Assembly (NCBI GenBank): GCA_017387565.1
Contig: JAFOEY010000034.1
Span: forward strand, 16,607-80,606
DNA length: 64,000 nucleotides
Direction: 5' to 3'
DNA from: Lachnospiraceae bacterium
Lineage (GTDB): Bacteria; Bacillota; Clostridia; Lachnospirales; Lachnospiraceae
In this document: positions 17,936 through 53,627 of the stretch, piece after piece
Layout: the number at the start of each line of letters is the position of its first letter
Numbering within the stretch: position 1 is the stretch's first letter
Translations under genes and position numbers: made by a program
Notes under the pieces: generated by a model
Told to the model about the DNA's origin: nothing
Databases searched by the model: none
What the model saw: only the letters and a program-made list of their open reading frames with translations

Positions 17936-18032
17936 TATAAAACAAAACCTTCCCTGTACTTTGGCTAGTGCGAGAAGGTTTTGCATTAAATCTTTTATAA
18001 GGCCAACCACTCTGTGGCGATTGCCTTTTCTA
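17935..18032 (-). ncRNA. Putative antisense antitoxin RNA (~100 nt)
   Basis: Convergent promoter TTGTAA-16-TGcTATAAT (18065-18038). Hairpin AAAACCTTC...GAAGGTTTT (17943-17983) followed by a U-rich tract on the minus strand. Confidence 0.65.
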
Positions 18033-18142
18033 TTTACATTATAGCAAAAAACAGAAATATTACAACTAGTTTCTCAAATTCGTTTGTTCATTTTTACTAA
18101 AAGCGAAGTATCATACTCTGTGATCCGAAAAATCAATTTATC

Positions 18143-19197: not shown

Positions 19198-19305
19198 AAT
19201 GGTTTTCCTTTTTATGATATATTTCTAATCGTAAAATCCCGATTTATTTCTTTAAGCGAGTTCCTTTCCTCTTTACTCAATGGATTCTTATGATAAAATC
19301 CCAAA

Positions 19306-19788: not shown

Positions 19789-19901
19789 ATTATTTTTTCA
19801 TCTCCACCTTAGCTCATAAAATATGAACCTACCGGCTCCATCTTAAAAATTACTATTTAAAATGCAAGCCCAGACATTACTACTAAACTAACTAATACAA
19901 T

Positions 19902-20642: not shown

Positions 20643-20670
20643 TTCAGTTACCTCCTCATATTCGCATCCT

Positions 20671-21231
20671 TTACATCTGAAATACCAGTCCGACCACTGC
20701 TCCGGCAACCATCCAGAAAAAGGGATGAATCTTGTTCAGCTTCTTCAGATTCATGGCAATGAAAAACAATGCACATAGAATCAGAGAAAAGACCGGAAAC
20801 TGAAAACTGCCATCCGATGCCGTAAACAAAGCAGTCTCAAAGATACCGCATACCGCCGTTGCAATAAGGCCTGTCACAACCGGCCGGATCATGGCAAAGG
20901 ACGATTTCACATACGGATTTTCATTAAATTTATCCAAGATTTTTGCAATGATGACAATCACAATCAGACTGGGTAAGACCAGAGAAAGCGTTGCAGCGAT
21001 ACCACCGGCTAACCCTGCTGCATGGAATCCTGCATAGGTTGCCATATTGATACCAATCGGTCCCGGTGTGCTTTCGCTGATAGCAAGCATATTTACCACG
21101 TCGGATTTGGCATACCAGTCATGTCTGGACGGAATATCCATCAAAAAAGGAATTGTTGCCGGACCACCACCGACTGCAAATAATCCAATCTGGAAGAATT
21201 CAATAAATAGTTGTAAGAAAACAGAGTTCAT
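20671..21231 (-). CDS. Chromate transporter short-chain subunit (CHR family)
   Basis: FFQIGLFAVGGG, SESTPGPIGINMATYAG. Confidence 0.9.
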   Translation of the reverse strand: MNSVFLQLFIEFFQIGLFAVGGGPATIPFLMDIPSRHDWYAKSDVVNMLAISESTPGPIGINMATYAGFHAAGLAGGIAATLSLVLPSLIVIVIIAKILDKFNENPYVKSSFAMIRPVVTGLIATAVCGIFETALFTASDGSFQFPVFSLILCALFFIAMNLKKLNKIHPFFWMVAGAVVGLVFQM

Positions 21232-33798: not shown

Positions 33799-33889
33799 CT
33801 GCCTTTTTATCCCTTACTATAACCATATCACGAATAATGAAAAAATTGTACTAAATTCATACTTTGTGATTTCACTTGCATTTACGCAG

Positions 33890-34066
33890 AAATAATGATA
33901 AAACATTTATGTCCGGGGAAACAGGTGAAAATCCTGTACGAGCCCGTCGCCGTAAGGCACATCAATACTGCCGTTCTTATCAAAAGCCACAGTTTTGAGA
34001 CAAACCATTGGGTCATCCTGAGAAGGTTGAACGGTAAGGTGCCAAGTCGAAATATCCGGATATCTC
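33890..34066 (+). ncRNA. Cobalamin riboswitch
   Basis: GGGGAAACAGGTGAAAATCCTGTACGAGCCCGTCGCCGTAA ... CCATTGGG..CCTGAGAAGG ... AAGTCGAAATATCCGG B12-element pattern. An alternative hairpin GATATCTCCA..TGGAGAAATATC plus U-tract (34059-34120) follows. Confidence 0.85.
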
Positions 34067-34212
34067 CAAAGATAAACCGCGAGTGCCGGTAGATGGAGAA
34101 ATATCATTTTTCTTTTTTCAATTGTAAACTAATAAATTTGCTATTCTATCACAGCAAACTTTTTAAAAGCAGAAAAAAGAAAAAAATAACAAAATAAGGA
34201 GAAAACACGAAA

Positions 34213-34779
34213 ATGAAAGTAAGAAACAAAAAATTCTTTTCCTTACTCCTTTGTATGATGTTAACTGTGGCAATGGCATTTAGTACAACAGGTTGTAGTG
34301 GAAACAATAAAGAAAGCGAAGCCCAAACCGAAACGCAGGTAGAGGCTGATGCACAGACAGCAGAAGAATCTGATGTGCAGGAAGATGCGCAGGATGCTGA
34401 ACAGATAGCCGAGGCAGAAGGTGCGCAGGCCGAAGAACAGGCAACAGAACAGCCCGACGCACAGACGGATGCAACCGTACTTGGTGAAGGACAGACAGTT
34501 TTCACATTTAATGTTACAGATGCGGATGGAAATGAAACTAATTTTGAAATCCACACTGATAAAGAAACGGTCGGTGATGCTCTTTTAGAGCTTAACTTGA
34601 TTGCCGGCGAAGACAGCGAATACGGTCTTTATGTCAAAACCGTAAACGGCATTACTGCTGATTACGACAAAGACCAGACTTACTGGGCTTTTTACGTAAA
34701 TGGCGAATATGCTCAGACAGGTGTTGATTCCACAAACGTTACTGCAGGAGACACATACTCCTTTAAGGTTGAAAAATAA
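34213..34779 (+). CDS. DUF4430 (transcobalamin C-terminal-like) lipoprotein, probable B12-binding
   Basis: Lipobox TTGC, acidic linker, TVGDALL...YGLYVKTVNGI...YWAFYVNGEYAQTGVD...GDTYSF. Confidence 0.8.
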   Translation: MKVRNKKFFSLLLCMMLTVAMAFSTTGCSGNNKESEAQTETQVEADAQTAEESDVQEDAQDAEQIAEAEGAQAEEQATEQPDAQTDATVLGEGQTVFTFNVTDADGNETNFEIHTDKETVGDALLELNLIAGEDSEYGLYVKTVNGITADYDKDQTYWAFYVNGEYAQTGVDSTNVTAGDTYSFKVEK

Positions 34780-35297
34780 TGAAGCTTTCGACTAGAGAGC
34801 TGACTGTTTTTGCGATGCTCGGTGCGCTCATGTATGCCTCAAAGGTCATCATGGAAGTGGCACCGAACGTCCATCTTTTAAGTGTATTTACCGTTGCTTT
34901 TACCGTTGTATACCGAAAAAAAGCGTTATACCCCATTTATACCTATGTTTTGTTAAATGGAATTTTTTGTGGATTTGCAACCTGGTGGATACCTTATCTG
35001 TATATATGGACGGTTCTTTGGGGCGTCATTATGCTCCTTCCGCGCAATATGAAAAAAACAGTCAGACCGATTGTATACATGGTGTGTTGCTCTTTGCACG
35101 GTTTCCTATTCGGAACACTGTATGCACCGGCACAAGCACTTTTATACGGATTGAATTTTAAGGCAATGATTGCATGGATTATCGCAGGATTACCATGGGA
35201 TATGGTACACGGTATCAGCAATTTCTTTTGCGGATTTCTGATTATACCGATTGTCAAAGTGCTTACTATGTTGGAAAATGGAAAAACAGGGACGTAG
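34779..35297 (+). CDS. ECF transporter S component (CbrT-like, cobalamin)
   Basis: AML.ALM...PNVHLL...GLPWDMVHGISNF. Translationally coupled to DUF4430 under a B12 riboswitch. Confidence 0.75.
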   Translation: MKLSTRELTVFAMLGALMYASKVIMEVAPNVHLLSVFTVAFTVVYRKKALYPIYTYVLLNGIFCGFATWWIPYLYIWTVLWGVIMLLPRNMKKTVRPIVYMVCCSLHGFLFGTLYAPAQALLYGLNFKAMIAWIIAGLPWDMVHGISNFFCGFLIIPIVKVLTMLENGKTGT

Positions 35298-35762: not shown

Positions 35763-36308
35763 CTATAATTCAGTTTCCAAAATTCTTCGCAGTTCCTTAA
35801 TTAAATCCTCAATGATGACCGGCTTTGAAATAAAACCGTTCATACCGGCATCCTGTGCCTTCAAAAGTTCGAGTGATTCAACTCCATTTCCGACTTCCTC
35901 AACCAAAAGACCATGCTCCAGAAGGATTTCTTTTAAAATCACACGGTTTGTCTCATTATCATCCACCAATAATACGCGATGCCCGGGCAGTCTTTCGATA
36001 TTGACCATTTCTTCCGGTTGCAATTCTTCATACGTATTTTCTCCCAACGTATAGGTAATTGCAGTTTCCATATCCTGTAAAACCGCCTGAATCTTATCCA
36101 GATAGTCAACAGCCTGCTTATCATTGTTACGACCAAGCTCCGCATATCCGACCGCACTGTTAAGTGCTGTCCTAAGATCCCGCAAAGATTTCCTGTTAAA
36201 TTCTGTTTCTTTCCTCGCAGCTTCTAACTCTGCATCTAAAAGATCCAGCTTCTTTAAAAGCATTTCATAATAATTATGCGAACTGCGTACATTTCCATCC
36301 GGATACAA
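35763..36308 (-). pseudogene. Degenerate hybrid histidine kinase/receiver fragment
   Basis: HisKA-like SLRDLRTALNSAVG (His absent), no HATPase. Receiver VLLVDDN..NR...AGMNGFISKP lacks the phosphoacceptor Asp segment. Confidence 0.6.
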
Positions 36309-36360: not shown

Positions 36361-38709
36361 CTACACCAAACTCATCTCATTAAATTCTATCATTTCCGCT
36401 TTCTTTTTTTCCTGTGTCAGAACAGGTTGTTTTTCCTTTGCAATCCGAAGAACAAATTCCATAATCTCATCGCATTTGTTTTGCTCGCTATAGACCTGAT
36501 TAAAATCCTCAATCTCATATAAATACATATCATTTATCTTGCGGCTTTCGACAGCTTTTATATCATGATTTCCAAAATGAAGTATAATTTCCTTATCCAA
36601 AGGCTTTCCTTCAATCGAAACAAATTGATAATTGAAGTCAATCACTTTTGCCATTCCGTTTCCACCAGAAGAACTATATGCAATAAAACTGTTGACCTCA
36701 ATTCTTGGAAAATGACGTTTTAAAAGAAATACCGGAACACTTCGTCGCCCGATATTGGTACTCAAATCATCATATACACTGTTTTTTTTCTGCAACTCTT
36801 GTGGCTTGGTTGGAATTCTATCATAACAGATTGCCAACAAATTATCATATCCTTGCTCACTTTTGAATCCTATAAATTCCATAGTATAAAGCCAAAGATT
36901 ATCTTGTTTTTCCTCTTTCTTTGTAAATTTAACTTCACACATCATTTCCACATGATAATTCCGGTCTGTGATTTCCAAACTGACACCAGATTCTTTATAC
37001 TCATTCAAAAGATGTGGTTTCTCAAGATATACAGCCGCACCGGTTTCGGAAACATCCTTTGTTTCACACTTATAATCAACACCATTCACATGCAAAACCG
37101 CTGGAATTTGAACTTGAACACGTTCGGCATTTCGATAAGTCTCTCTTCCACTGATAAAAAATGAACTCATAACCATATTATATAAATTTAAAATCAGCCA
37201 AAACAATACAACAACCGGTCCCATGGATCCACTATCAAACATATTACGTATACAGTTAATAATACCGATTATGGAAAGAATGATGAATATAAAAACAGGA
37301 ATTTGATATACAATCATTTTTTCCCATCCACTCTTTCCTTCGTCAGACAAGGTTTCTTTTTTTGTTACCTTAAACTTTTTTAGTGAAAAACCAAATGTCT
37401 CCAAAATAATCGGAATTAACATATACGGAAATAGCGCATACTCATAAATAGAAGTCCATTTCGTATTTCGAATATTATTACTTAATCGACGCAAACAAAT
37501 ATTACTGGAAACATACATAGGAAGCCAAAAAATAAGGACTTCCCAAAGGGAGCACCTAAAAATACAATATCCAAACACAGCATATAAAATTGGTGACATG
37601 ATGTAAAAAAATCTCTTTATCGGAGCATACCAGTACCAAATTGATGCCCAATAATTCATTTTCTGTTCAAAAGACAAATCCTTAGACGTAAAAATATGCA
37701 GTTTTCTTCCAGTTGCAATAACACCTCTGGCCCACCTAACTCTCTGCTGAATTAAGCTTTGAATCTCATTAGCACTCATTCCGGATGCTAAAACTTTACT
37801 GATCCCTAATGTAACATAACCTTTTTTCTGAATTAATATACCTGTTGCAAAGTCCTCTGTAATTGCATCTGTATAAAAGCCCCCAATATCATTTAAAGCT
37901 TCTCTACTAAGGATTGTGTTTGAACCGCCATAAATGCAACTATTTGTCCTTGTTCTTGCCACCTCAATATCTCGATAGAAGTAATCCTGTTCATTTGGTA
38001 TTTTCTGCTCTGCGTACAAATTGAACTGAAACAAATCCAAATCATAAAATGCCTGTGGTGTTTGAACAAAACCAAGTTTAATCTGGTCTTCCGGTTTTTT
38101 GCCTTTGTTTCGTATTTCAGCATCCACAAAATAGGGAATTGTTTCCATTAAAAAGCAGCTCTGAGGAATCATGTCTGCATCCAATGTCAAGATATATGGA
38201 GAATTGGAATGTGCCAGTGCATGATTCAAATTTCCTGCTTTTTGACCTTCATGAGTATCTCGATCCAAATAATTCACATGCAATTTGGATGCTAAAAGTT
38301 TCATAGTATCTCGATGTCCATCATCACACAAATAAATATGTACCTTATTTTTATCAGGATAATCTAACCTTTTGCAAGCACAAATTGTTTTTGCTAATAA
38401 AACATAATCTTCATTATATGTCGAAATAAAAACATCTACATCCGGATACAATTCTAATGGCACATTCGGTTTTTCATAATCCCTTGTATTATACATATTT
38501 GCATAATGAACCAGTGCCTCGACCATACCAAGTGTCTCTACAATTAATAAGGCAATACCTACAAAAATAGAAATAAAACCATATCCAAACGGAATCGTAA
38601 AAAAGATACGCCATGTCAAATATACTATCGTAAAATAAATATTTAGAACAAACCATCCCTTACTTTTCAAGTCGTGTATGAAATTTTTAAATACTTGATT
38701 TTTTTTCAT
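36361..38709 (-). CDS. Cellulose-synthase-like GT2 with C-terminal PilZ domain(s) (BcsA/CcsA-like)
   Basis: DVFISTYNE, LCDDG, KAGNLN, LDADMIP, FVQTPQ, TED, QRVRW. PilZ RNAER + DVSETG, plus a second degenerate RHFPR. Confidence 0.9.
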   Translation of the reverse strand: MKKNQVFKNFIHDLKSKGWFVLNIYFTIVYLTWRIFFTIPFGYGFISIFVGIALLIVETLGMVEALVHYANMYNTRDYEKPNVPLELYPDVDVFISTYNEDYVLLAKTICACKRLDYPDKNKVHIYLCDDGHRDTMKLLASKLHVNYLDRDTHEGQKAGNLNHALAHSNSPYILTLDADMIPQSCFLMETIPYFVDAEIRNKGKKPEDQIKLGFVQTPQAFYDLDLFQFNLYAEQKIPNEQDYFYRDIEVARTRTNSCIYGGSNTILSREALNDIGGFYTDAITEDFATGILIQKKGYVTLGISKVLASGMSANEIQSLIQQRVRWARGVIATGRKLHIFTSKDLSFEQKMNYWASIWYWYAPIKRFFYIMSPILYAVFGYCIFRCSLWEVLIFWLPMYVSSNICLRRLSNNIRNTKWTSIYEYALFPYMLIPIILETFGFSLKKFKVTKKETLSDEGKSGWEKMIVYQIPVFIFIILSIIGIINCIRNMFDSGSMGPVVVLFWLILNLYNMVMSSFFISGRETYRNAERVQVQIPAVLHVNGVDYKCETKDVSETGAAVYLEKPHLLNEYKESGVSLEITDRNYHVEMMCEVKFTKKEEKQDNLWLYTMEFIGFKSEQGYDNLLAICYDRIPTKPQELQKKNSVYDDLSTNIGRRSVPVFLLKRHFPRIEVNSFIAYSSSGGNGMAKVIDFNYQFVSIEGKPLDKEIILHFGNHDIKAVESRKINDMYLYEIEDFNQVYSEQNKCDEIMEFVLRIAKEKQPVLTQEKKKAEMIEFNEMSLV

Positions 38710-38712
38710 ATA

Positions 38713-39996
38713 CTATTCTTCTCCGCCTACCAAATCATCCATAAAAAATTGAAACGCCGAATCGCCTATGTTATAGGGATATACTTCAATAATGATACAA
38801 TCAAACTGATTTTCTCTAATGTACTGCTCAATATCAATTTCATGATTTTCTGTTAAATTCCATATAGCATCAATCTGACCGCACATTGGTGTCATAAATG
38901 TAATAACCGGAGAAAAATACGAATCTCGAATCATTAATATTTTTTTACCATTGGGATTGGAAAGATTCTTTATCTGTTCATATGCATAAATTGAATTCAA
39001 ATAAACAGAATATTGAGAATCTGAATATATATCCTCTTGTATCAATTTCTCAGGTAAAATAATGGTTCCAATAATATCACCCTTCGTTGTGATACTCTTT
39101 TCCTTTCTTTCGATAAAGGTTCTTTCGATTTCCATCTGAAATTTTGGATATAACACAGTCATATCCTCTAATCCTGAATACTGAAATCCGGTTGCACGCC
39201 CCATGGATCCCAACATGCCTTGTTTATAAACCTCTTTCCTATAATTTTCCTTTGTCAGGTATTTATCACAATCCAAATTATACTCATATTTTTCATTCAA
39301 AAAATCCGTCAAAATCTCTGTTGCATAAAATGCAGCCGGTGCAGTCCAATGATGATCTGTTTTAAAGAAAGCTTCTTCATAGGGTATTTCCTCATTTGGA
39401 AAATATAAGTTCAAATCAATTGTATCCACCCCTAATCGGTTCATATAAAATAATGTTTCATCAACCAAAACCTGAGGGTCATTTACCGGCATATCCTTTG
39501 AAAATCGACTGTCACTTGCTACATATTTTGATGGAGCAACGACAAATACTACTTCCGTATCATATTTTGACACGTAATCCTTAAGTCTCTTTACTCGCAT
39601 TGCATATTCAAAACAATTATTATCATCATCACGATAAAATGACGCATAATGCAAACTCCCGGTATTATCCTTGATGTATGTAAAATTACTGATTTCTTTC
39701 TTATTCAAAGTCTTTTGAACAAATCCAAAGCATTCAATAAATTGCATTTTATATGCAAAATTTTCTTCTAATTCCTGTTCAAAAGAAGAAATATGTTCCT
39801 GCAATTCTTCCGGATCTTTACGAACATCATTAACACATTCAAAAAAAGCCTCTTTTATCTCATCCGCGTTTATATACATATTGTAAGCAGAAAAAATAAT
39901 GATAAAGCATATAAAGATAACACAAACTAATCGTTTTCGGATAAAATATGCATTCTCTATAAAATTGTTTTTCATCTTTTTTAATAATTGTCTCAT
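38713..39996 (-). CDS. DHHW/AlgJ-AlgX-like SGNH O-acetyltransferase
   Basis: N-terminal TM anchor, KTDHHWT, IRDSYF. Confidence 0.82.
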   Translation of the reverse strand: MRQLLKKMKNNFIENAYFIRKRLVCVIFICFIIIFSAYNMYINADEIKEAFFECVNDVRKDPEELQEHISSFEQELEENFAYKMQFIECFGFVQKTLNKKEISNFTYIKDNTGSLHYASFYRDDDNNCFEYAMRVKRLKDYVSKYDTEVVFVVAPSKYVASDSRFSKDMPVNDPQVLVDETLFYMNRLGVDTIDLNLYFPNEEIPYEEAFFKTDHHWTAPAAFYATEILTDFLNEKYEYNLDCDKYLTKENYRKEVYKQGMLGSMGRATGFQYSGLEDMTVLYPKFQMEIERTFIERKEKSITTKGDIIGTIILPEKLIQEDIYSDSQYSVYLNSIYAYEQIKNLSNPNGKKILMIRDSYFSPVITFMTPMCGQIDAIWNLTENHEIDIEQYIRENQFDCIIIEVYPYNIGDSAFQFFMDDLVGGEE

Positions 39997-40009
39997 ATTA
40001 TTCCTTAAA

Positions 40010-41434
40010 TTAGAAATTGAAATAAATAAACGGATTATAGTTTCCGGCTGCTAAATATCCCAAAGATAATATAAATAACAACATAATTGCAACGGGATAA
40101 ATAACTGATATGACACCATTTTTTAACGAAATTCTTTGATGATACAAGCATTCATTCATTTTACGCGCTACAGGCGTTGCAAAAATAATACCGGCTAAAA
40201 GAAAAATCCAGTTTTCTTTTAAAAGAATAATTGCAAGTCCGCTATAAAAGCCATTTCTATTTAGCCCAAACATGTTTAGAATAAATCTTCCCGCCTGATA
40301 GAGATTATCAGAGCGGAACAATACCCATGCAAAATTTACAATAAACAGCGTATATAAATGTTTCATCCAATTATATTTCATTTTATCAACATATCCAAAA
40401 AATCGTTCTGAAAGCTGAATAACAAAATACAACATCCCCCACAAGACAAATGTCCAATTGGCACCATGCCAAATACCCGTAAGCAACCACACAATAAATA
40501 AATTTCTTACCATTGTATCTTTATTATCAGTACGGCTTCCACCTAGTGGAAAATAGACATATTCCCTAAACCAATCGGTTAATGATATATGCCATCTCTT
40601 CCAAAAATCCTGGATAGAAGTTGCAATATAAGGATAATTAAAGTTTTCTCCAAATTTAAAGCCGAAACAAAGAGCCAATCCAATTGCCATATCCGAATAT
40701 GCGGAAAAGTCATAGTAAATCTGTAATGTATATGCGATACTTCCAAGCCATGCAAGCATTGCAGGAACCACATATTTATCATTACCAATAGAAGACCATC
40801 CAAACACATTATCTGCAATTGCAGCAAAACAATTTGCAAGCAAAACCTTTTTTATTACTCCTACCACAAATCTGCTTATACCAAGTGATAGCTTATTAAA
40901 TGTTACAGTTCTTTTCTGAATAGAACCTGCAATTGTTTTATACTGAATAATTGGTCCGGCTATTAGCTGTGGAAAAAAAGAAAGATATAGTCCAACATAA
41001 AATGGATTTTCAGCAGGAACAATTCCTTTATATACGTCAACCACATAGGATATGGCCTGAAAAGTAAAAAATGATATTCCGATTGGTAATGCAATCTTCA
41101 TCGAATCACATTGTAAATTCTCAGGCAACAATCCAACAACAAATCCTAAATACTTATATATAAATAGAATTCCAAGATTTACTGCTATTGTAAAAATCAA
41201 AAAACACTTTCGTTTTATTTTCTTTCCGCGTGATAATTGATATCCCATTAAACTATTGAATAAAATGGAAAATACTAATATCCAAACATTTCTCGGCTCC
41301 CCCCACGCATAAAACAAAAGACTGACAACTAATAAAACTATGTTTTGTAAAATTCGTGAAAACGAGCAAATAAAATACAGAATTAACGTTATCGGTAGAA
41401 AATAAAATAAAAAAGTGATACTGGAAAATACCAT
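40010..41434 (-). CDS. MBOAT O-acyltransferase (AlgI-like)
   Basis: MVFSSITFLFYFLP, LPIGISFFTFQ, FFPQLIAGPI, ENFNYPY, WHISL, GIWHGANWTFVLWG, NPFIYFNF. Confidence 0.93.
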   Translation of the reverse strand: MVFSSITFLFYFLPITLILYFICSFSRILQNIVLLVVSLLFYAWGEPRNVWILVFSILFNSLMGYQLSRGKKIKRKCFLIFTIAVNLGILFIYKYLGFVVGLLPENLQCDSMKIALPIGISFFTFQAISYVVDVYKGIVPAENPFYVGLYLSFFPQLIAGPIIQYKTIAGSIQKRTVTFNKLSLGISRFVVGVIKKVLLANCFAAIADNVFGWSSIGNDKYVVPAMLAWLGSIAYTLQIYYDFSAYSDMAIGLALCFGFKFGENFNYPYIATSIQDFWKRWHISLTDWFREYVYFPLGGSRTDNKDTMVRNLFIVWLLTGIWHGANWTFVLWGMLYFVIQLSERFFGYVDKMKYNWMKHLYTLFIVNFAWVLFRSDNLYQAGRFILNMFGLNRNGFYSGLAIILLKENWIFLLAGIIFATPVARKMNECLYHQRISLKNGVISVIYPVAIMLLFILSLGYLAAGNYNPFIYFNF

Positions 41435-41452
41435 AGATTTTCTCCTTAACTT

Positions 41453-43063
41453 CTATTTTCGGTTGATCAGTATCGAAGGAATGAGAAACAACGCAATAAT
41501 AACAAATAAGAAGAATGTTGTATTTCCCTTCAAACCTGTTACTATTGTTGTCTGGTCATTTAACTGTGTCAGTAGAATCTGCATATTTTTTCCATGCTTA
41601 CTCAAATAGACTTTAATGTTATATATCTCCTGATCATAATCATCATTGAAACGACTAACTGTTTCACCATTAAACTCATAATCACTCAAGTAATAATTCC
41701 CCGGATTCTCATACGTCGAATCATAATAATCTGCTGCCCAACGATACCATTCTCTTTCTCTTGCAGAATTCAAATATTTTGTAGTTTCATCTATCATAGA
41801 GAAAATGTACTCATCGTTGAGATATCTCCTTCTAAGTGATGCATATCTCGATTTCAGTAAATTTACAAATTTTTTATCCTGACAGAGTTGTTTAAAAAAA
41901 GTTTTTTCCTGCATTGCCAAGGTTAATGGATCCGTCTCATCCATAACCGAGTTATTCATTGCCTGATCAAAGTCCCATACCGGACCTATTTTTAACGCTT
42001 CTCCTTGATTTTTGTACATATAGGTAGAATGTTCTCCGGCATCATAATTTCCAAAAAACTCATTTATCAAAAAATAATCCACAAAAGAACTGATATCAAT
42101 GTATTTCTCATATTGCTTGAAAACTTTTTCATCCTCTGAATATAAAACCTGCTCAATCTTTGAAAAGTCCTGCTCAATATATTTTATGTTTTTCTCAGTC
42201 TGTTTACTGAGCGATGGATATTTAACACCAATCCATCCCGGATCGAATTCATTAAGCCTTCCGTATGTTTCAAGCATTGTATCAAAATTTGTAAATCGGT
42301 CTCGTCTAACCAGATAGGATGTATACGAGTTTTTCGTATTACATTTATCGATATTTACACGTACATCTGACTGTTTAATCTTCTCCATCATAAGATACAC
42401 ACCTTGATATTCATAGGTATCATTCTTTTTAATCAATACTTCACAAAAACGACATCTGGGTGCATATTCCATAATTTGTGATGCAGTCCTATAGGCAATG
42501 TAATTTCGAATCATGCTCTTATCAGCCATGCTACCGTTTAATATCCACGCATCATCTTCTCCCATTCCAAAGATATTTGCTTTCATATCATTGCCGTTTT
42601 CATCTGTTAGACTAATATAATACTGTGGTTTATCAAAAGAAAGAGATGTATGTCCTCTTTTCTTGATTTTCATATTCTCCACCAAAATTGGTTCATCATC
42701 AACAGAATTCTCCATATCAGCATTATCAAAAAGCGTTATCTTTCCATTAACCCAAGGATTCACATCTTCAAAGACTATTTCACCTGTCTCTGTAAATTTC
42801 TTATAAATCGGTAAATCTCCATCTATTTCCAGAACTACCAATGGAAGATTGGAAACAAATCCCGGAAGCATCTGATAATTCTCATCAAGAAATTCCAAAG
42901 GATCTCCTTTTGATTTATCTTCCGGTAATGTTTCATAATATAGATAAGATGATGTATCCTTTTTATTTTTAATGTCTTTAGTATACTTTATATAAGAAAT
43001 CCCAAAAATCAATATACAAACAGACACAATAAAAAGAACCAGTCGCTTTATATTTGCAGTCAT
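41453..43063 (-). CDS. CotH-family atypical kinase, membrane-anchored and extracellular
   Basis: KIKKRGHTS, WILNG..ADKSMIRNY, YQGVYLMMEKI, INEFFGNYDAG, GPVWDFD. TMs at both termini. Confidence 0.88.
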   Translation of the reverse strand: MTANIKRLVLFIVSVCILIFGISYIKYTKDIKNKKDTSSYLYYETLPEDKSKGDPLEFLDENYQMLPGFVSNLPLVVLEIDGDLPIYKKFTETGEIVFEDVNPWVNGKITLFDNADMENSVDDEPILVENMKIKKRGHTSLSFDKPQYYISLTDENGNDMKANIFGMGEDDAWILNGSMADKSMIRNYIAYRTASQIMEYAPRCRFCEVLIKKNDTYEYQGVYLMMEKIKQSDVRVNIDKCNTKNSYTSYLVRRDRFTNFDTMLETYGRLNEFDPGWIGVKYPSLSKQTEKNIKYIEQDFSKIEQVLYSEDEKVFKQYEKYIDISSFVDYFLINEFFGNYDAGEHSTYMYKNQGEALKIGPVWDFDQAMNNSVMDETDPLTLAMQEKTFFKQLCQDKKFVNLLKSRYASLRRRYLNDEYIFSMIDETTKYLNSAREREWYRWAADYYDSTYENPGNYYLSDYEFNGETVSRFNDDYDQEIYNIKVYLSKHGKNMQILLTQLNDQTTIVTGLKGNTTFFLFVIIALFLIPSILINRK

Positions 43064-43075
43064 ATTTACCTCTCA

Positions 43076-43762
43076 TTAGCCAGATATTTCATCATCCTGA
43101 CAAACAACACTAATACTGTTAAGTCCTTCAATTTCACTCAGTTTTTCTTCTAAAGAACCATTTTTCTTTTCGCACTTCTTCATAAAGGCCGATGACGTTT
43201 CAAAAATGCTTTCTCCATCAACACCAATATCAACATTGTGTACTCTTCTGACTGCCTTTTTATCTAAAACTAAATCAACTATCTTTTCAGCCTCTGTTAT
43301 TGCATTTACACTTCCACGGATAATAATTAATGTACGATCTGTATTTCTCACAAATCCAAAAAGAACTAAAAACATAAAGATAACAATGGAACCAAGTAAT
43401 GCAATCAGATAATCAGAAACACCGCAACATATACCTACCGCAACAGCCCAGAAAATGTAAATGGTATCTCTGGGATCTTTAATCGCTGTACGGAAACGTA
43501 CAATGGAAAGCGCACCGACCATACCTAATGAAAGTGAGATGTTATTTCCGATGACACACATAACCATCGTTGTAACAAGCGTAACCATTACCAGTGAAAT
43601 ATTAAAACGTTCGCTGTAAATCGTTCCACTATGGGTAGCACGATATGCCGTATAGATAAGTACTCCGATTAATAAAGCTGCAATTAAATTGATTGCTACA
43701 TCACCAAATGTGACCGCTCCTTCGCCCTGGCTTTGAATCAGATTGTATAATGTTTCCTTCAA
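43076..43762 (-). CDS. DUF4956 family membrane protein
   Basis: NISLSLGMVGALSIVRFRTAIKDPRDT.YIFW signature, TTG start. Confidence 0.9.
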   Translation of the reverse strand: MKETLYNLIQSQGEGAVTFGDVAINLIAALLIGVLIYTAYRATHSGTIYSERFNISLVMVTLVTTMVMCVIGNNISLSLGMVGALSIVRFRTAIKDPRDTIYIFWAVAVGICCGVSDYLIALLGSIVIFMFLVLFGFVRNTDRTLIIIRGSVNAITEAEKIVDLVLDKKAVRRVHNVDIGVDGESIFETSSAFMKKCEKKNGSLEEKLSEIEGLNSISVVCQDDEISG

Positions 43763-43763
43763 C

Positions 43764-44465
43764 TTATTTTCCTCCTCTTTGTCTCAATAACATTCTTGAT
43801 TTAACATATTTACTATTTGAAATCTGAGTGTACATTTTATAACTTAATGCTTTTTTGATATTGCTCATCAGAAATCCGTTATATTTAACCTCAAGTGTGA
43901 TTTCCGTTGGAGATATAAGCGGATACATAATGGCATCTTCCGTAAACAGATTAAAATTGCTCTCACTTCCCCGCAAATTTGTATCAAAGGTAATCCGTGT
44001 ATCATTTTCAGTAATCAGATAGGCAAATCTGTCATATTCCACCATACATTTGGGCCGATATAATCCCATCTGCATAATCAGATAGATATTCTGTGCTAAT
44101 GGTTCCTTCTTTTCTTTTAAATAATGAAAATCCCCTTGTATGAGAGCCTCTGCTTCCTCTCTTTTTATTAAGAGAGAACGTTTTCTTTGTACCCCACCTT
44201 TTTTTTCCTTTAGTTCCAATTTTGCAACGTCCGAATTTGTGTTATATATACGCAGCCTTATTTTTTTTCTGTCATCAACACCATCTTCTTTATCAAAGAA
44301 ATCACTGTCATACAGGGAATCAAAATAGACTGACCGCACAATATATCCACTGCTTCCATTATGTGCATCCTCCTGCATATAGGTGCTTATTCTGCTTTTT
44401 AGAAACTGCATTTCAACCGGGTCTATCAGATACTTTTTTTCAACGCGGTTTACATCAAGGATCAT
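43764..44465 (-). CDS. VTC-like polyphosphate polymerase domain protein (CYTH superfamily)
   Basis: RVEKKY, Y.VRSVYFDS, RKKIRLRIY, KLELKEK, KRSL, YDRFAY...RITFD, LEVKY, SKYV. Confidence 0.9.
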   Translation of the reverse strand: MILDVNRVEKKYLIDPVEMQFLKSRISTYMQEDAHNGSSGYIVRSVYFDSLYDSDFFDKEDGVDDRKKIRLRIYNTNSDVAKLELKEKKGGVQRKRSLLIKREEAEALIQGDFHYLKEKKEPLAQNIYLIMQMGLYRPKCMVEYDRFAYLITENDTRITFDTNLRGSESNFNLFTEDAIMYPLISPTEITLEVKYNGFLMSNIKKALSYKMYTQISNSKYVKSRMLLRQRGGK

Positions 44466-45531
44466 TCGTCTCCTCCTCCCTCTTCAATAAAAGCAAGTCA
44501 TCATATGTATGAAAAATGATTTGTTCATCCTTTTTCAGATATTGAAGCACGATTCCAAGTATGGAAAGTGCAACAAATACCAATGTGACAATCCATATAT
44601 TTTCTATGAACCACCAATACGTAAAATAGGAAAACAAGACCGCTCCTATCAAAGGAACTACCCAAAACTGTTTCCTTTGTAAATAATCATATAACATAGC
44701 TTTTTTAATTATGCTTTCAAAAAGCATCAAAATAAACAACATGAGGCCTAATCCGATGAATGCAAACAGAACAAAAAAGAGCATGAGTGCAAGAAAAGAA
44801 CCATTTATTGCCATTCCCATTTTCATTCCCAAAAGTCCTGAAAGCATTGCAATTACACTTAAAAAAGCATTCCGGATGATTCTTGCTCCCCATATACACA
44901 GCGCCAGGCAAATCATTAGTGTAAAAACCTTCATCAATGGGAATACAACTTCAGGCCGAAAAGAAAACCATACCACCTGCTTCCATTTCGGAATCAAATG
45001 TATTTCATATAAATATTCTTCTGTTTCTTCCGACCACAAAGGAGCTTCTACCACATCAGACTTATTTAGTGAAGCATTATGATCTGAATCATTCTGTATT
45101 AAGAGATATACCCCCACTTTCAGACCATTTGCTTTCCCCACACCCTTTTTACAGGATATTTTGGCAGTTGGTTCAATCTGATTTTCTATTATGTACTCCT
45201 CAATGACATGTGCCACTTCATCAATATCCGTGCCACGCGAAAGCTTTCGATAGGGAGTAATATCTAATTTACTATATGGTTCTATATAGGAAAATGTACC
45301 ATCTTTATATTCAGCAATCTGATAAACATCAATTCCTAAAAAACGAGATTCGTTTTCCAAATCTACAATTAGCGTAATCGGTTCATCCATCAGAATGTCC
45401 GGCTTTTCTATAATTTTCTTTGCATAAACCGGTGCCGAACCCAAAAGACATATGAAAATGATTAAAAAAAGGGCACACCAAAAAGGCGTCCCCACAATGA
45501 GATGTTTTTTCATAGTTCTATTTTCTTCCAT
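44455..45531 (-). CDS. Membrane protein with an extracellular pilin/Cna-like Ig domain
   Basis: Signal-like N-terminus, GIDVYQIA...GLKVGVYLLIQ...Y.IHLIPK, then about 5 TMs. Start uncertain (45513-45609). Confidence 0.6.
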   Translation of the reverse strand: MEENRTMKKHLIVGTPFWCALFLIIFICLLGSAPVYAKKIIEKPDILMDEPITLIVDLENESRFLGIDVYQIAEYKDGTFSYIEPYSKLDITPYRKLSRGTDIDEVAHVIEEYIIENQIEPTAKISCKKGVGKANGLKVGVYLLIQNDSDHNASLNKSDVVEAPLWSEETEEYLYEIHLIPKWKQVVWFSFRPEVVFPLMKVFTLMICLALCIWGARIIRNAFLSVIAMLSGLLGMKMGMAINGSFLALMLFFVLFAFIGLGLMLFILMLFESIIKKAMLYDYLQRKQFWVVPLIGAVLFSYFTYWWFIENIWIVTLVFVALSILGIVLQYLKKDEQIIFHTYDDLLLLKREEETNDP

Positions 45532-45667
45532 ATTCATTTCCCCATTTAATTCCCTTTGTAGTAGGATACCTTGAGGATACCTTGATAAATCCAAAAAATC
45601 AATATGCATTTTTTAGTAAATTACCATTTGTTTTACCAATTTGTACTAGCAGTTTACACAAATTCTC

Positions 45668-45706
45668 AGTGGGGACGGTTCATTTGTCATAAAGAGTGTC
45701 CCCACT
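45668..45706. repeat. Family 3 palindrome at the 5' boundary of the polysaccharide operon
   Basis: AGTGGGGAC-GGTTCATTTGTCATAAAGAGT-GTCCCCACT. Confidence 0.75.
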
Positions 45707-45762
45707 AATCACGGTAAAATGCTTCCGCATCAATTATTTCCTGCGAATCGGAATATTTTTTT

Positions 45763-47332: not shown

Positions 47333-48637
47333 CTATAAATCACTGTCTGTTTTCTTACTTTCATTGTAATAAGTGACGATTTCCTTCTTTTTATCCAGAA
47401 ATAAATCCACCAGATCCGGATCAAAATCCGTTCCGGCACCATCCTCAATAATCCGAAAACACTTCTCAAGCGGCATGGCATCGCGATAACATCTTTTTGC
47501 AGATACGGCATCAAATACATCAGCAATTGCCATAATACGCGCATGCAGAGGAATTTCTTCTTTGCTTAATCCATCCGGGTAACCTGTCCCATTCCATTTT
47601 TCATGATGATAACGCGCAACCTCATATGCGACTTTCTCATAATCGGGATCATCCAGGTTAGAAAAAGTTTTTTCGATAATCTCCCCACCGATTTTGGCAT
47701 GGTCTTTCATGATTTCATATTCTTCAGCAGTCAGTTTGCCGGGTTTTTGCAAAATGTGATCAGGTGTCGCAATTTTACCGATATCATGCATGGGTGCGGC
47801 ATCTAAAACATGCATCGCATAGTCTCTGGAAAGAACCGGACGGAATTTAGGATGAAGCCAAAGCGAATCCAGTATTATCCGGACATACTCTCTGGTCCGG
47901 TTGATATGTCCGCCGGTATTATTATCCCGATTTTCAACCAGTGTCGCAAATCCGGTTACCATATTGGCATTGTAATCCTGCAGGCGGCGAAGAGCCGGAT
48001 CTTCAAAATTCACATAGAGGCTGAGTACCGTAAATGCAGGTACAACAGATGTCATCAGTATTTCCGGAAAAATAAGCTGGGCAATCAAAACACCCAGTGC
48101 TAACACCATTAATACAATAATTCCAAATAAATTCTTTTTCTCAATCGTTTTGCGATGAATCAGTATCACACCAAAAATAATGATAAAATGTAAAAACAGG
48201 GATGCAAAGCAAATATAAACAGGAATTCCCATGGAATAGTTGGTTGTACTTCCTTTTACATAATACAACTTATCCATAAACAGAATAATCAATGCAATGG
48301 AACCAAACCCCGGCAACATCAACATAAACCGTGTCGTGGCAGAATTGATACCAATTGTCATCTGGATAATATATAAAAAAATGGCAATTGTCAGCATATC
48401 CATCAAAATGAAAAACAAAGCGTGACAGATCAAATTAAACCAGTCAGGAACTTTGTCCATACGATTGACCGTCCACGCCGTAATTCCATCAAACGCAATT
48501 GCCCATGGCGCAATAATAAGAACGGCATCAAAATAACCATTACAAGGCATCTTTTTTTGAATCGTTTCTTTCATATATTCGGCAGTAAAATATAAAACCA
48601 CCAGTAAACATCCCAGCTGAAGTTTGATATCAGACAT
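47333..48637 (-). CDS. Membrane-bound HD-GYP cyclic dinucleotide phosphodiesterase
   Basis: About 7 TMs, TGGHINR, MHDIGK, HHEKWNGTGYP, ARIMAIADVFDA. Confidence 0.9.
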   Translation of the reverse strand: MSDIKLQLGCLLVVLYFTAEYMKETIQKKMPCNGYFDAVLIIAPWAIAFDGITAWTVNRMDKVPDWFNLICHALFFILMDMLTIAIFLYIIQMTIGINSATTRFMLMLPGFGSIALIILFMDKLYYVKGSTTNYSMGIPVYICFASLFLHFIIIFGVILIHRKTIEKKNLFGIIVLMVLALGVLIAQLIFPEILMTSVVPAFTVLSLYVNFEDPALRRLQDYNANMVTGFATLVENRDNNTGGHINRTREYVRIILDSLWLHPKFRPVLSRDYAMHVLDAAPMHDIGKIATPDHILQKPGKLTAEEYEIMKDHAKIGGEIIEKTFSNLDDPDYEKVAYEVARYHHEKWNGTGYPDGLSKEEIPLHARIMAIADVFDAVSAKRCYRDAMPLEKCFRIIEDGAGTDFDPDLVDLFLDKKKEIVTYYNESKKTDSDL

Positions 48638-51291: not shown

Positions 51292-51798
51292 TCATATCTC
51301 TTTCTCATAACAATAAAATGGCTGCTCATATAAAAAAACTTCTCCAACCTTTGAAAAGTGTAAATGACGGTACGAGCGCAAAGCCTTTTCGTTATATTTA
51401 TTTACAAGAAAATGAATACTTTTATAACCTCTCTTTTTAATCTCATGCATGGCACATTTTAGCATTTCCTGCGCCAGACCCTGATTCTGATATTCCACCT
51501 TAACCGCCAATCTTGCCACTTCTTTTCCCGGGGCAAGCTCTTTGGACCAGCATTCCAGCCTCTCCACTTCTTCATCCATATCAAGCGAAATGGCAGCAAT
51601 GATTTCACCGTTTGCATCTCTTTTAATCAACAGAGCATCCTGGGCCAGATCAAAATCAATCTCCCGTTCTGTCGGATATTGTTCCGTCCATGGACAAAAT
51701 TCACGCCCAAGCTGTGAGCGGTATAGATTTAATATTTCTTTTTTATCCGCTGCCGTCGCCAGCTCATATCTTTGTTCCACTGTTTTCTCCTTATTCAC
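51292..51798 (-). CDS. GNAT family N-acetyltransferase
   Basis: ARLAVKVEYQNQGLAQEML, NEKALRSY. Confidence 0.88.
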   Translation of the reverse strand: MNKEKTVEQRYELATAADKKEILNLYRSQLGREFCPWTEQYPTEREIDFDLAQDALLIKRDANGEIIAAISLDMDEEVERLECWSKELAPGKEVARLAVKVEYQNQGLAQEMLKCAMHEIKKRGYKSIHFLVNKYNEKALRSYRHLHFSKVGEVFLYEQPFYCYEKEI

Positions 51799-53627
51799 AC
51801 TTCCTGTTCTTCATGATAAAAAGTACATCTGCATCCTTTTATCTTTTTGCTTTCATAAAGCATCATATCAACCTGTTTATAGATTTCTCCGAAGGAAATC
51901 CGTTCATTTCCATCATACAGTGAAGCACCCACACTGATGCAAAGTTTTTCACCTTTCAGTTCCGGCAAATCGATGGTTTCCACACTCCGAAACAGTGCTT
52001 CTATCCGTTCATTCCCATCTTTCTCACTGTCAATTCCAGAAGCGTAAACCGAAAATTCATCACCGCCCAGACGCATAACGATATCATCTTCACCAAACAC
52101 ATCCTCTAAAGCTCTTGCAATGGCTATCAGTACTTTATCACCGACATCATGTCCATAGGTGTCATTAACTGCCTTAAAGCTGTCAACATCCAGTAAAAGC
52201 ATCATACCTTTTTGCTTTTTCAACAAACATTCCGCAATTTCCTTTTCCCCGTAACCACGGTTATATATGCCGGTCAGTTGATCAGTCTGGGAAAGCTTTA
52301 ACAGTTCCTTTTCTCTTCTTTTTTCTTTATCAATGACTTCCACTGCATATATGACATGATTAACGTGTTCTAAATCATTCCCTTCGACAATAAAACGGGC
52401 ACGACACCATCCACTTCTTTTTCCCACGAATTCATAAGACAAAGTACGGTTACCCTTCAACCGTTTTGGCAGCGTACTTAAATCAACGAATTGAACAATT
52501 CCTTCTTTAAATGGATCGGAAGTCATTCCTGCCATCGCATTGCGCAATTGTTGTGAAGCTGTCTGGGTCTTTTTATCAACAAAGCTGTTTATAATTTCAT
52601 TACTCTTGATTTCTACAATCCGGTCATTTTCGATATCAATCAGATGCATAGATACATAGATATTGGCAAGACTGATTAATCCGCTTGTTTTGGCTTGAAT
52701 CACCGTGGCATGGTTGCCTCTCTTTAATACCAGAATGACCACAAGCACAAGAAGGGTCAGGATTGCAAACATGGTAACAACAGTATCAGAAATCATATCT
52801 TTAAAGCTTATTGACAGACTGGGATTATCTGACCCAACCACCAGATACAACCCGAGACCTTCCATATACTTTGTAATGACATACCCCTCGTTTACTTTCT
52901 GATACTCATAATCCAGCTGTGATTTGTCTAAATCCATATCTTTCAATACCGTATTTTGAATATTGATATTGTCCACATCAATCTGAACCTGACCATCATC
53001 ATCTATCAGTGTAATCCGCACCTGATACTCATCCTGTGCTTCTACCAGCTCTTTTTGCAATTCATCCACAACCACGCTGACACCACAGACTCCAAGTAAA
53101 TTCCCGTTTTCATCCTCAATCCGGTTATCTACAAAGACCCTCCATTCACCTTGATGGTTTTCATCAACATCTATATCAAAATCATAATCAATATTTTGCT
53201 CCAAAAATAAGGAATACCAAATATCATACTCGTCATTTTGCGGATCCACAACTTTATTCAGTCCTGCCTGTGTATAGTATTTCAGACTATCAGCTGAAAC
53301 AACGAAAGCAGAAGTAATACCCATTCCATCAGTCAATGAACAAAGATATTCCTGCATAGTTTCTTCCATTTCCGTATCTGACAGTTCAGCTTCCTGTTTC
53401 AACAAAGAAATCAAAAAAGAATCGTGAGCCATGGTCTGTCCTATATTAAGTGGTCGCTGAAGATCTTTGTTTAAGCTGTCATAGATACTGCCCGCAATCA
53501 CTTTTGCATAGGATTCTTCATGACTATTCATAACCGTCTGCAAAGAATCAATGGAAACTGCAGTAGATATAAAAAAACTAACGATAATAAGTATTACAAC
53601 CAGATAACCAAAGTAATTTTTCTTCAT
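51795..53627 (-). CDS. Diguanylate cyclase (Cache-like sensor, PAS-like, GGDEF)
   Basis: Two TMs flanking a sensor domain, DQLTGIYNR, DVDSFKAVNDTYGHDVGD, RLGGDEF. No RxxD I-site (GEDD). Confidence 0.9.
   Translation of the reverse strand: MKKNYFGYLVVILIIVSFFISTAVSIDSLQTVMNSHEESYAKVIAGSIYDSLNKDLQRPLNIGQTMAHDSFLISLLKQEAELSDTEMEETMQEYLCSLTDGMGITSAFVVSADSLKYYTQAGLNKVVDPQNDEYDIWYSLFLEQNIDYDFDIDVDENHQGEWRVFVDNRIEDENGNLLGVCGVSVVVDELQKELVEAQDEYQVRITLIDDDGQVQIDVDNINIQNTVLKDMDLDKSQLDYEYQKVNEGYVITKYMEGLGLYLVVGSDNPSLSISFKDMISDTVVTMFAILTLLVLVVILVLKRGNHATVIQAKTSGLISLANIYVSMHLIDIENDRIVEIKSNEIINSFVDKKTQTASQQLRNAMAGMTSDPFKEGIVQFVDLSTLPKRLKGNRTLSYEFVGKRSGWCRARFIVEGNDLEHVNHVIYAVEVIDKEKRREKELLKLSQTDQLTGIYNRGYGEKEIAECLLKKQKGMMLLLDVDSFKAVNDTYGHDVGDKVLIAIARALEDVFGEDDIVMRLGGDEFSVYASGIDSEKDGNERIEALFRSVETIDLPELKGEKLCISVGASLYDGNERISFGEIYKQVDMMLYESKKIKGCRCTFYHEEQEV

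Follow-up and report, generated by a model that had tools for sequence, protein, structure and literature searches.

A question raised by the locus described here is why an operon equipped to synthesize and acetylate an exopolysaccharide (EPS) should also carry genes for a polyphosphate-polymerase-like VTC protein, a DUF4956 membrane protein and a CotH-type kinase. The locus is found in a 64,000-nucleotide stretch of DNA from a Lachnospiraceae bacterium (contig JAFOEY010000034.1, positions 16,607 to 80,606), which as a whole is referred to here as the window, and it comprises seven open reading frames (ORFs), all on the minus strand. In transcription order, genes 1 to 7 occupy positions 44455-45609, 43764-44465, 43076-43762, 41453-43063, 40010-41434, 38713-39996 and 36361-38709, with gaps of -11, 1, 12, 18, 13 and 3 nt, in which the negative value denotes an overlap. 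These coordinates bear out an initial annotation of this DNA, which had noted seven co-oriented and tightly packed or overlapping genes in an AT-rich block: the guanine-plus-cytosine (GC) content of the operon is 0.334, compared with 0.395 in the remaining window, and is the lowest among 220 sliding windows of 9.2 kb. The VTC, DUF4956, CotH, MBOAT, GT2 and PilZ domains assigned in that annotation were each confirmed with Pfam. We propose a two-layer explanation, in which a machine for making an acetylated beta-glucan has recruited a polyphosphate/CotH surface module. This explanation is tentative as a whole, and we hold it with somewhat less than even confidence.

The first layer includes gene 7 (36361-38709), whose 782-amino-acid (aa) product is predicted to be a processive GT2 beta-glucan synthase of the BcsA/CcsA-like kind, whose C-terminal part includes a PilZ domain. 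Pfam matches to GT2 families are at about 1e-14 and that to PilZ at 1.5e-11, and the alignments with the BcsA proteins of E. coli (7LBY, 1.6e-67) and R. sphaeroides (4HG6, 1.1e-55) span the glycosyltransferase domain, the transmembrane (TM) region and the start of the PilZ domain. The full set of catalytic D, DxD, TED and QxxRW motifs is found (DDG 129, LDADM 176, TED 284 and QQRVRW 322), as are a gating loop, FKVTKK 446 (FxVTxK), and the PilZ motifs RNAER 526 (RxxxR) and DVSETG 552 (DxSxxG). The intact gating-loop and PilZ motifs are consistent with control of the synthase by cyclic di-GMP (c-di-GMP), as the initial annotation had proposed. The scores against the NCBIfam cellulose-synthase equivalogs TIGR03030 (369.1 bits; cut-off, 699.1) and NF008558 (289.9 bits; cut-off, 992) are below the cut-offs, and the protein is therefore filed as a BcsA/CcsA-like homologue rather than as a certified equivalog. 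Its product could be cellulose or a (1,3;1,4)-beta-glucan. RiGT2, a related synthase of Romboutsia, makes (1,3;1,4)-beta-glucan and shows no c-di-GMP effect or binding in vitro (PMC10374906), and the clostridial hydrolase CcsZ prefers mixed-linkage glucan five-fold over carboxymethylcellulose (PMC7710045). The last ~150 aa of gene 7, past the PilZ domain (residues ~630-782; 36361-36800, minus strand), match no family and contain a second RxxxR motif (RHFPR, 665-669); this region could be a degenerate second PilZ-like domain.

Genes 5 and 6 are predicted to provide the acetylation branch. Gene 5 (40010-41434) encodes a putative MBOAT acyl shuttle of the CcsH/WssH/AlgI/PatA-like kind (Pfam MBOAT, 2.2e-26, 93 bits), with DltB as its nearest NCBIfam model (138 bits, below the cut-off) and with conserved His residues in WHIS (about 281-282) and WHG (about 322-323). 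Gene 6 (38713-39996) encodes a putative membrane-anchored, extracytoplasmic SGNH O-acetyltransferase of the ALGX/DHHW type, comparable to CcsI/WssI/PatB, with a Pfam ALGX match (2.2e-12, 47.7 bits), a DS motif at 358 and a single N-terminal TM helix (24-42). Its earlier designation as a DHHW acetyltransferase stands: the ALGX match and a literal DHHW at 214-217 support it, although the Pfam DHHW model scores 21.5 bits against a cut-off of 25. With the MBOAT and ALGX scores above their cut-offs and with the motifs and single TM anchor given above, the two proteins have the features expected of an MBOAT-SGNH O-acetylation pair, in agreement with the earlier proposal. A small ORF (53-108 aa) directly precedes the MBOAT gene in three related operons (L005:13026-13202, L006:13021-13182 and L008:15327-15653) and may encode a small MBOAT partner comparable to DltX. 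No small ORF is found at this position in the window, where CotH and MBOAT are just 18 nt apart.

This half of the operon resembles ccsZABHI of C. difficile, a co-oriented Clostridia operon that encodes a GT2-PilZ synthase (CcsA), an MBOAT protein (CcsH) and a DHHW/SGNH protein (CcsI) and whose CcsH/CcsI arrangement was proposed to yield acetyl-cellulose (PMC7710045). Only the equivalents of CcsA, CcsH and CcsI are found in the window. As the initial annotation had stated for endoglucanases and BcsB, no gene for a GH5/CcsZ-like protein or for a CBM11-like CcsB or BcsB-like protein was found beside the operon or among the Pfam-scanned ORFs (about 27 of the 52 window ORFs of at least 150 aa). 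A GH5 gene is found directly 3' of the synthase gene in the related loci L005, where it encodes a cellulase, L076 and L081. Conversely, the window has four extra genes, for a 5-TM/pilin-like protein, VTC, DUF4956 and CotH, and the ccsZABHI paper makes no mention of a kinase or polyphosphate (PMC7710045). We are confident of the operon-level description, namely a c-di-GMP-type synthase coupled to acetylation of a beta-glucan.

The second layer consists of genes 2, 3 and 4, whose distribution was surveyed in the 80 genome loci with the closest VTC relatives, the nearest clade. Of 88 VTC genes, 87 have DUF4956 as their immediate 3' neighbor, at a median distance of 10 nt, and the one remaining is cut by a contig end; CotH is the next gene in 72 of the 88. 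The whole set (the VTC-DUF4956-CotH trio plus MBOAT, SGNH and GT2-PilZ genes) is found in 56 of the 80 loci. Two others combine the trio and the synthase with GH5 and lack the acetylation genes, 12 have the trio without a GT2-PilZ synthase, nine have the VTC-DUF4956 pair only and one is cut off right after VTC. The synthase accompanies the trio in 58 of the 80 loci; of the 65 whose downstream flank extends to 9 kb or more, 52 have it. A divergent clade was sampled by a metagenome scan seeded with distant DUF4956 representatives; its DUF4956 proteins are ~30-40% identical to one another and are at the far end of the 150 best representatives for the window DUF4956 profile. There, VTC and DUF4956 are adjacent wherever the contig allows and CotH follows as the third gene in 48 of the 63 loci that could be used, while no GT2-PilZ, MBOAT or ALGX gene is found near the trio in any of the 22 long loci. 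Thus, the association with EPS synthases, for which the initial annotation had suggested a neighborhood survey, holds in the nearest clade but not in the divergent one, and it is therefore clade-specific rather than general. That annotation had named the lack of such an association as a finding that would refute its proposal, and the divergent clade goes part of the way toward this.

The trio is thus an autonomous, ordered three-gene unit, whose first two members are inseparable and whose third is a tethered ecto-protein. Given the near-constant adjacency of VTC and DUF4956 and the same gene order in the divergent clade, it probably also acts as one membrane-coupled unit. EPS operons of no fewer than three unrelated synthase-dependent kinds have taken it up, namely Pel (PMC7112168), the NELoc-2-type GT2 and the Ccs-like operon described here. 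The published remark that this arrangement is not found outside Pel loci (PMC12345266) does not hold, since the trio is also found in Ccs-like and NELoc-2-type loci and stands alone in others. The trio loci of the nearest clade that have no GT2-PilZ synthase are of two groups. One has the C. perfringens NELoc-2 layout, with CotH, a ~720-aa protein, a HEAT-repeat protein and a chitin-synthase-like GT2 (also in L072, L075, L080 and L088), and in the other no synthase is apparent beside the trio, which is accompanied by a metallo-beta-lactamase-fold gene. In NELoc-2 itself (PMC2879425), VTC, a 226-aa membrane protein and CotH adjoin GT2; the 226-aa protein, annotated as 'tubulin/FtsZ', is the DUF4956 equivalent by size and position. 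NELoc-2 differs from the window operon in that its GT2 is chitin-synthase-like and without PilZ, its accessory genes encode a HEAT-repeat protein, a ~700-aa protein and a deacetylase, and its CotH has no C-terminal TM helix.

Gene 1 (44455-45513, ORF as listed to 45609) probably ties the trio to the synthase. Its product has no Pfam or NCBIfam match. The AlphaFold2 (AF2) model (mean predicted local distance difference test score, pLDDT, 69.7) contains an N-terminal hydrophobic helix, predicted to be a signal anchor, a beta-sandwich and then five TM helices. The best Foldseek matches of the sandwich are sortase-type pilins (CppA 5XCB, E 4.9e-6; SpaA; SpaD), so that on the model this is a pilin-like Ig/CnaB-type ectodomain, as expected from the earlier description of an Ig-like membrane protein. 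All 12 full-length homologues are 348-364 aa long and the upstream ATG (45609) has no ribosome-binding site, and for these reasons the start is most likely Met33 (45513), not 45609. The 5-TM core, whose motifs span PKW...F to FHTYDDL, immediately precedes VTC in 41 of the 57 loci with the synthase, and it is missing from all 18 loci without it and from the divergent clade. The pilin-like ectodomain is found only in the clade to which the window belongs.

Gene 2 (43764-44465) encodes a 233-aa protein that consists of the VTC domain alone (Pfam VTC PF09359, 2.6e-36, 125.8 bits), has no TM segment and is predicted to be a soluble cytoplasmic polyphosphate polymerase domain of the Vtc4-like triphosphate-tunnel type. 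Searching the PDB with the individual VTC and CotH sequences returned nothing relevant, and family profiles were needed. The VTC profile matches only Vtc4 (3G3Q, 5.6e-10), Vtc2 and Vtc3 in the PDB and no other tunnel/CYTH enzymes. In yeast Vtc4, K200, R264, R266, K281, R361, K458, S457 and Y359 hold the triphosphate and E426 holds Mn2+, and it is by K458 alone that the active Vtc4 differs from Vtc2/3, which are inactive (10.1101/2023.01.27.525886). Alignment with hmmalign places Vtc4 R196, K200, R264, R266, K281, Y359, R361 and R373 at R7, K11, R70, R72, K86, Y144, R146 and R157 of gene 2, respectively. The last six are invariant, and R7 and K11 are kept in at least 90%, among homologues with identities as low as 28%; over the same range, no variation is seen at E192-x-K194 or S218-K219. 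The retention of the triphosphate-binding residues fits the polymerase-type active site that the initial annotation had assumed, and on this basis we slightly favor the view that the protein makes polyphosphate. Gene 2 has neither the SPX domain nor the C-terminal three-helix DUF202 membrane domain, and it may work like a VTC enzyme without being a member of the VTC complex family. The rival view that the protein is a CYTH-type triphosphatase or another tunnel metalloenzyme, and hence makes no polyphosphate, is very unlikely: although the tunnel fold is common to triphosphatases, an N-terminal strand reads R-x-E-x-K, near the CYTH signature ExExK, and no assay of a bacterial VTC protein was found in the literature, Pfam assigns VTC and not CYTH, the PDB matches are confined to Vtc proteins, and the Vtc4 substrate-binding residues are invariant, including a Lys that apparently matches K458.

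Gene 3 (43076-43762, with a TTG start) encodes a DUF4956 membrane protein (Pfam PF16316, 3.2e-13) with five TM helices and a C-terminal ACT/MgtC-C-like domain. Its AF2 model shows five helices followed by a beta-alpha-beta-beta-alpha-beta domain, for which the top Foldseek match is the C-terminal domain of MgtC (2LQJ, E 1e-3, target TM-score 0.55), with 7QA5 also matched; a weak Pfam MgtC match scores 18.2 bits against a gathering cut-off of 31.4. As modeled, the protein resembles MgtC/SapB in architecture without belonging to that family. The segment NNIxLSLGMVGALSIVRFRTAIKDPRD is almost invariant family-wide, and its invariant basic loop RFRTAIKDPRD (residues 89-99) and the C-terminal domain would face the cytoplasm, judging from charges by the positive-inside rule. 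The DUF4956 family has 6250 representative clusters at 50% identity, of which the best 150 are all ~220-230 aa. The initial annotation had suggested that VTC and DUF4956 form a split VTC complex. The catalytic half of this suggestion stands, the enzyme being Vtc4-like, but DUF4956 has no SPX and no DUF202 membrane domain and is MgtC-like. DUF4956 was accordingly rejected, on its fold, as the counterpart of the yeast VTC membrane domain.

Gene 4 (41453-43063) encodes a CotH-family atypical kinase domain (Pfam CotH PF08757, 1.4e-53, 183 bits) between N- and C-terminal TM helices (8-26 and 515-533). The CotH profile matches B. cereus CotH (5JD9) at 5.1e-5. NYD341 aligns with the catalytic Asp (D228 in B. 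subtilis) and WD364FD with the metal-binding one (D251), at the same 23-residue spacing, and this Asp pair is kept in at least 90% of CotH homologues. In 28 CotH homologues the N-tail is short and rich in K/R and the C-tail has 3-6 residues with 2-3 K/R. Two TM helices with such tails are what a membrane-anchored, extracytoplasmic CotH, as previously proposed, would show, and the kinase domain is very likely outside the membrane, a location that makes ATP doubtful as its donor. Bacillus CotH (5JD9/5JDA) belongs to the same Pfam family and has both catalytic Asp residues at the same spacing; unlike the tethered window protein, it has no TM helices, resides in the mother cell and phosphorylates CotB and CotG with ATP. 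A spore-coat role for gene 4 was rejected, given its two TM helices and the occurrence of the trio in non-sporulating streptococci and bifidobacteria (PMC7112168). CcsB and the window CotH have in common a two-TM bracket, a likeness at the level of topology.

Based on these observations, we propose that c-di-GMP acting via PilZ would switch on the BcsA/CcsA-type synthase, which would convert UDP-glucose to an extruded beta-glucan, either cellulose or mixed-linkage. Acetyl groups ferried through the membrane by the MBOAT protein would be attached to the polymer outside by the anchored SGNH enzyme. At the inner face, the soluble Vtc4-like enzyme, working against DUF4956, would make a polyphosphate chain from ATP, and a DUF4956 oligomer would move the chain, or its phosphoanhydride energy, outward. 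The tethered CotH, with no ATP supply outside, would then use polyphosphate to phosphorylate the nascent glucan or matrix/wall components. The trio would follow the plan of the acetylation genes, in which a shuttle in the membrane serves a transferase on the outside. Eukaryotes have glycan-directed kinases of the related Fam20/POMK type, and a polysaccharide substrate for CotH is therefore conceivable. The Wss acetyl-cellulose system of P. fluorescens and the BcsG phosphoethanolamine (pEtN) cellulose system of E. coli follow a similar logic, the polymer being modified outside by an enzyme fed through the membrane, with acetyl via MBOAT (Wss) or lipid-derived pEtN (BcsG) as the donor; there is no BcsB, BcsC or BcsG homologue here. 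We know of no cellulose system in which polyphosphate or an enzyme of kinase fold takes part. The most coherent account of the trio would be that exported polyphosphate supplies a kinase outside the cell, and this mechanism was not found in the literature searched. That polyphosphate is the phosphate donor of CotH is nonetheless the doubtful step. A still bolder view, that this is a bacterial polyphosphate machine unlike the VTC complex, in which a Vtc4-like polymerase acts on an MgtC-like DUF4956 oligomer, with CotH and Cthe_2159-family proteins as interchangeable tethered users of the polyphosphate delivered to the cell surface and with ATP-independent phosphorylation by CotH, is more doubtful again.

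Several observations weigh against this proposal. The CotH enzymes characterized to date are ATP-dependent protein kinases, and the alignment of D341 and D364 with 5JD9 is, on its own, a weak local segment. The equivalents of Vtc4 E426, S457 and K458 (E192, S218 and K219) are assigned by motif and spacing only, no alignment reaching there; a sub-profile made from the C-terminal part of the VTC protein gave no match to Vtc4, which leaves the equivalent of K458 unaligned. DUF4956 has no relationship to the channel of yeast VTC, and its conduction of polyphosphate is conjectural; the pLDDT of its model is modest (66.7) and its MgtC match is weak (E 1e-3). No VTC-DUF4956 fusion was found among the best 150 of the 6250 representative clusters. 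Although the initial annotation regarded the trio as functionally uncharacterized, it was described as a Pel-locus accessory set in 2020 (PMC7112168) and was knocked out in S. intermedius (SIR_1592-1594) in 2025, where deletion of VTC gave no aggregation phenotype, deletion of DUF4956 raised Pel and deletion of CotH lowered Pel (PMC12345266). These phenotypes disfavor a simple linear pathway from VTC through DUF4956 to CotH. Finally, the trio is found beside chemically different polymers (Pel, beta-glucan and the product of the NELoc-2-type GT2) and often beside no synthase, which makes a sugar-specific kinase unlikely and favors a more general target or polyphosphate itself.

The last point leads to an alternative in which polyphosphate is the end product: VTC and DUF4956 would deposit it at the surface, where the third protein would bind, anchor, cap or trim the chain. 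In nine loci of the divergent clade, the gene directly 3' of VTC-DUF4956 encodes a Cthe_2159-family protein in place of CotH (E 1e-53 to 1e-71; L123:3349-5283, L135:8738-10789, L138:4063-5868, L139:3817-5544, L148:4229-6583, L153:7210-9000, L160:991-2652, L165:9445-11574 and L166:1359-2957), a pairing of which no mention was found in the literature. These beta-helix proteins share the N-terminal TM helix of CotH and usually also the C-terminal one, and their family binds cellulose and polygalacturonic acid (PMC6712302). The third gene thus alternates between a kinase fold and a non-kinase fold of a family that binds polyanionic sugars, on the same two-TM tether, and, as noted, the trio also occurs without any synthase. 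Moreover, a 2026 preprint reports extracellular polyphosphate in the B. cereus group that is PPK-independent and has no known synthase, and its resistance to exopolyphosphatase is as if its ends were capped or attached (PMC13484657). Retention of the CotH catalytic Asp pair in at least 90% of homologues, however, points to catalysis over mere binding, the export role of DUF4956 is itself conjectural, and B. cereus is reported to be without a VTC4 homologue (PMC13484657), so that the VTC-DUF4956 module cannot explain the B. cereus polyphosphate. We consider polyphosphate as end product unlikely.

An unlikely reading, too, is that the trio is regulatory, with DUF4956, through its ACT domain, and VTC sensing or adjusting ATP and phosphate status at the membrane and with CotH tuning the amount of EPS as a protein kinase. 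The S. intermedius deletions agree with this, since they shift Pel in opposite directions and none abolishes it, and phosphorylation-based regulation was suggested by the authors of that study; MgtC proteins act on ATP synthase and PhoR (PMC12345266). The known CotH enzymes are also protein kinases, and among the varied neighbors of the trio in the divergent clade, where it stands alone, response regulators, RsgI-like anti-sigma factors and sigma factors are the commonest. Yet the kinase domain is predicted to be outside, away from ATP and from the cytoplasmic glycosyltransferase and PilZ domains, the Pfam MgtC score of DUF4956 is below the cut-off (18 vs 31 bits), and a polymerase-type active site would be odd for a sensor.

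The trio might, lastly, have no functional coupling to the EPS operon, being an autonomous mobile surface module that was inserted by chance and is co-transcribed with it. The synthase-free loci with varied neighbors in the divergent clade would agree with this, as would the pair-only loci, seven of whose nine are in a housekeeping context next to cysS, rlmB and a sigH-like sigma factor gene, and the second copies of the trio in several genomes. This view is nevertheless quite improbable, because the gene order is identical in the 56 loci with the whole set, which come from several Clostridia families and have gaps of a few nt, because the trio has joined three unrelated synthase types independently, because the 5-TM gene is found only where trio and synthase co-occur, and because deletions of the Pel-linked genes give EPS phenotypes. 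The seven pair-only loci (L037, L043, L048, L049, L050, L055 and L057; VTC ~10001-10690) have no CotH and contain mutS2-like, cysS, mini-RNase III, rlmB and GDSL lipase genes, with the sigH-like sigma factor gene directly upstream. The second, more divergent VTC-DUF4956(-CotH) sets are within 10 kb of the first and often directly 3' of the synthase (L006:18267-20696, L014:18347-19743, L023:15480-16876, L069:10767-12190, L068:1206-4108 and L088:5984-7320), and the second CotH of L006 carries the surface domains Fn3_assoc, CHB_HEX_C and Flg_new_2.

Compared with known systems, each half of this arrangement is familiar: ccsZABHI was described in 2020, and a set of cotH, polyphosphate polymerase and DUF4956 genes was reported beside Pel in 2020 and 2025. 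In the Gram-positive Pel loci, the same three families adjoin a synthase-dependent EPS operon, with the CotH predicted to be secreted and the DUF4956 described as combining an ACT domain with a TM region like that of MgtC (PMC7112168, PMC12345266). These loci differ from the window operon in having the Pel machinery (the GT4 enzyme PelF and its partners), a polymer rich in N-acetylgalactosamine, no c-di-GMP control in streptococci and a DUF4832 protein or glycoside hydrolase that accompanies the trio. With the yeast VTC complex (Vtc4/Vtc3/Vtc1; 3G3Q, 8I6V), the trio shares a homologous catalytic tunnel domain with triphosphate-binding residues kept and a membrane partner with a conserved basic, predicted cytoplasmic surface, comparable to the K/R rings of the VTC channel vestibule. 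It differs from that complex in that the catalytic domain is separate and soluble, without SPX or DUF202, that the partner is MgtC-like and that the proposed target is the cell exterior and not the vacuole. The joining of the Ccs-like and trio halves and its recurrence, the 5-TM partner, the Cthe_2159-family third gene and the stand-alone distribution of the trio are new, as is the residue-level case for what would be an active polymerase.

DUF4956 is a large family that is found with a Vtc4-like enzyme in every sampled locus, and a biochemical assay of neither was found in the literature. If the pair exports polyphosphate, this would bear on how an extracellular kinase is powered without ATP, and the module could be a bacterial way of carrying phosphate-bond energy to the cell surface. 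It would also offer Gram-positive bacteria a candidate pathway to extracellular polyphosphate that does not depend on PPK. If the proposal is correct, glucans of gut Clostridia could be phosphorylated as well as acetylated, with changes in matrix charge, cation binding and host recognition.

The genomic setting of the operon is conserved. The window's own VTC protein is present on 20 metagenomic contigs with the same operon and the same flanks: on the upstream side an HD-GYP gene, an ECF-transporter S component gene and the type III pantothenate kinase gene coaX, and on the downstream side an ORF of 181 aa, DUF2809 and DUF4430. The nearest genome bins, with VTC 90% identical, are Lachnospiraceae metagenome-assembled genomes from herbivore guts, and the operon is taken to belong to an uncultured bacterium of that habitat. 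The operon is kept across species (L004, L005, L006 and L008), in L004 (VTC 76% identical) in the same coaX/ECF-transporter/HD-GYP setting. That the AT-rich block results from recent horizontal transfer is not supported, the context being the same in a species whose VTC is only 76% identical. A second VTC-DUF4956-CotH set is found directly 3' of the synthase in L006 and L007, and in Clostridium sp. SHJSY1 the synthase gene is relocated ahead of the acetylation pair. The leader/promoter region between coaX and gene 1 (45514-45762, minus strand) is 153-249 nt long, depending on the start chosen; no Rfam family, c-di-GMP riboswitches included, was found in it even at E<=1, and matches in promoter and terminator scans were no better than in shuffled sequence.

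Two genes upstream of the operon encode a membrane-bound HD-GYP protein with the motif HHEKWNGTGYP (47333-48637, minus strand; distance 1.7 kb) and a GGDEF protein of 610 aa (51795-53627, minus strand; distance 6 kb), so the organism has c-di-GMP turnover enzymes nearby, which are candidates for serving the PilZ synthase. In L004 a second HD-GYP copy directly precedes the operon. The 181-aa ORF (35763-36308, minus strand), 52 nt 3' of the synthase gene, contains a partial HisKA segment and a receiver domain without its middle part, which includes the phospho-acceptor region; it looks like a remnant of a hybrid histidine kinase and is kept intact on three other contigs. Farther downstream, a cobalamin riboswitch (33875-34077, plus strand; Rfam RF00174, 36.6 bits, above the gathering score) is upstream of a DUF4430 gene pair (34213-35297). 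Elsewhere in the window, a 671-aa ORF (58054-60069, minus strand) combines the delta (OSCP) domain of ATP synthase with a complete alpha subunit and is either a delta-alpha fusion or two in-frame genes without an intervening stop codon. A second AT-rich patch, at window positions 17000-20000 (GC 0.30-0.34), contains an unannotated 214-aa ORF (18553-19197), an Imm44 immunity-protein gene (19306-19788) and a TraX-family gene (19902-20708).

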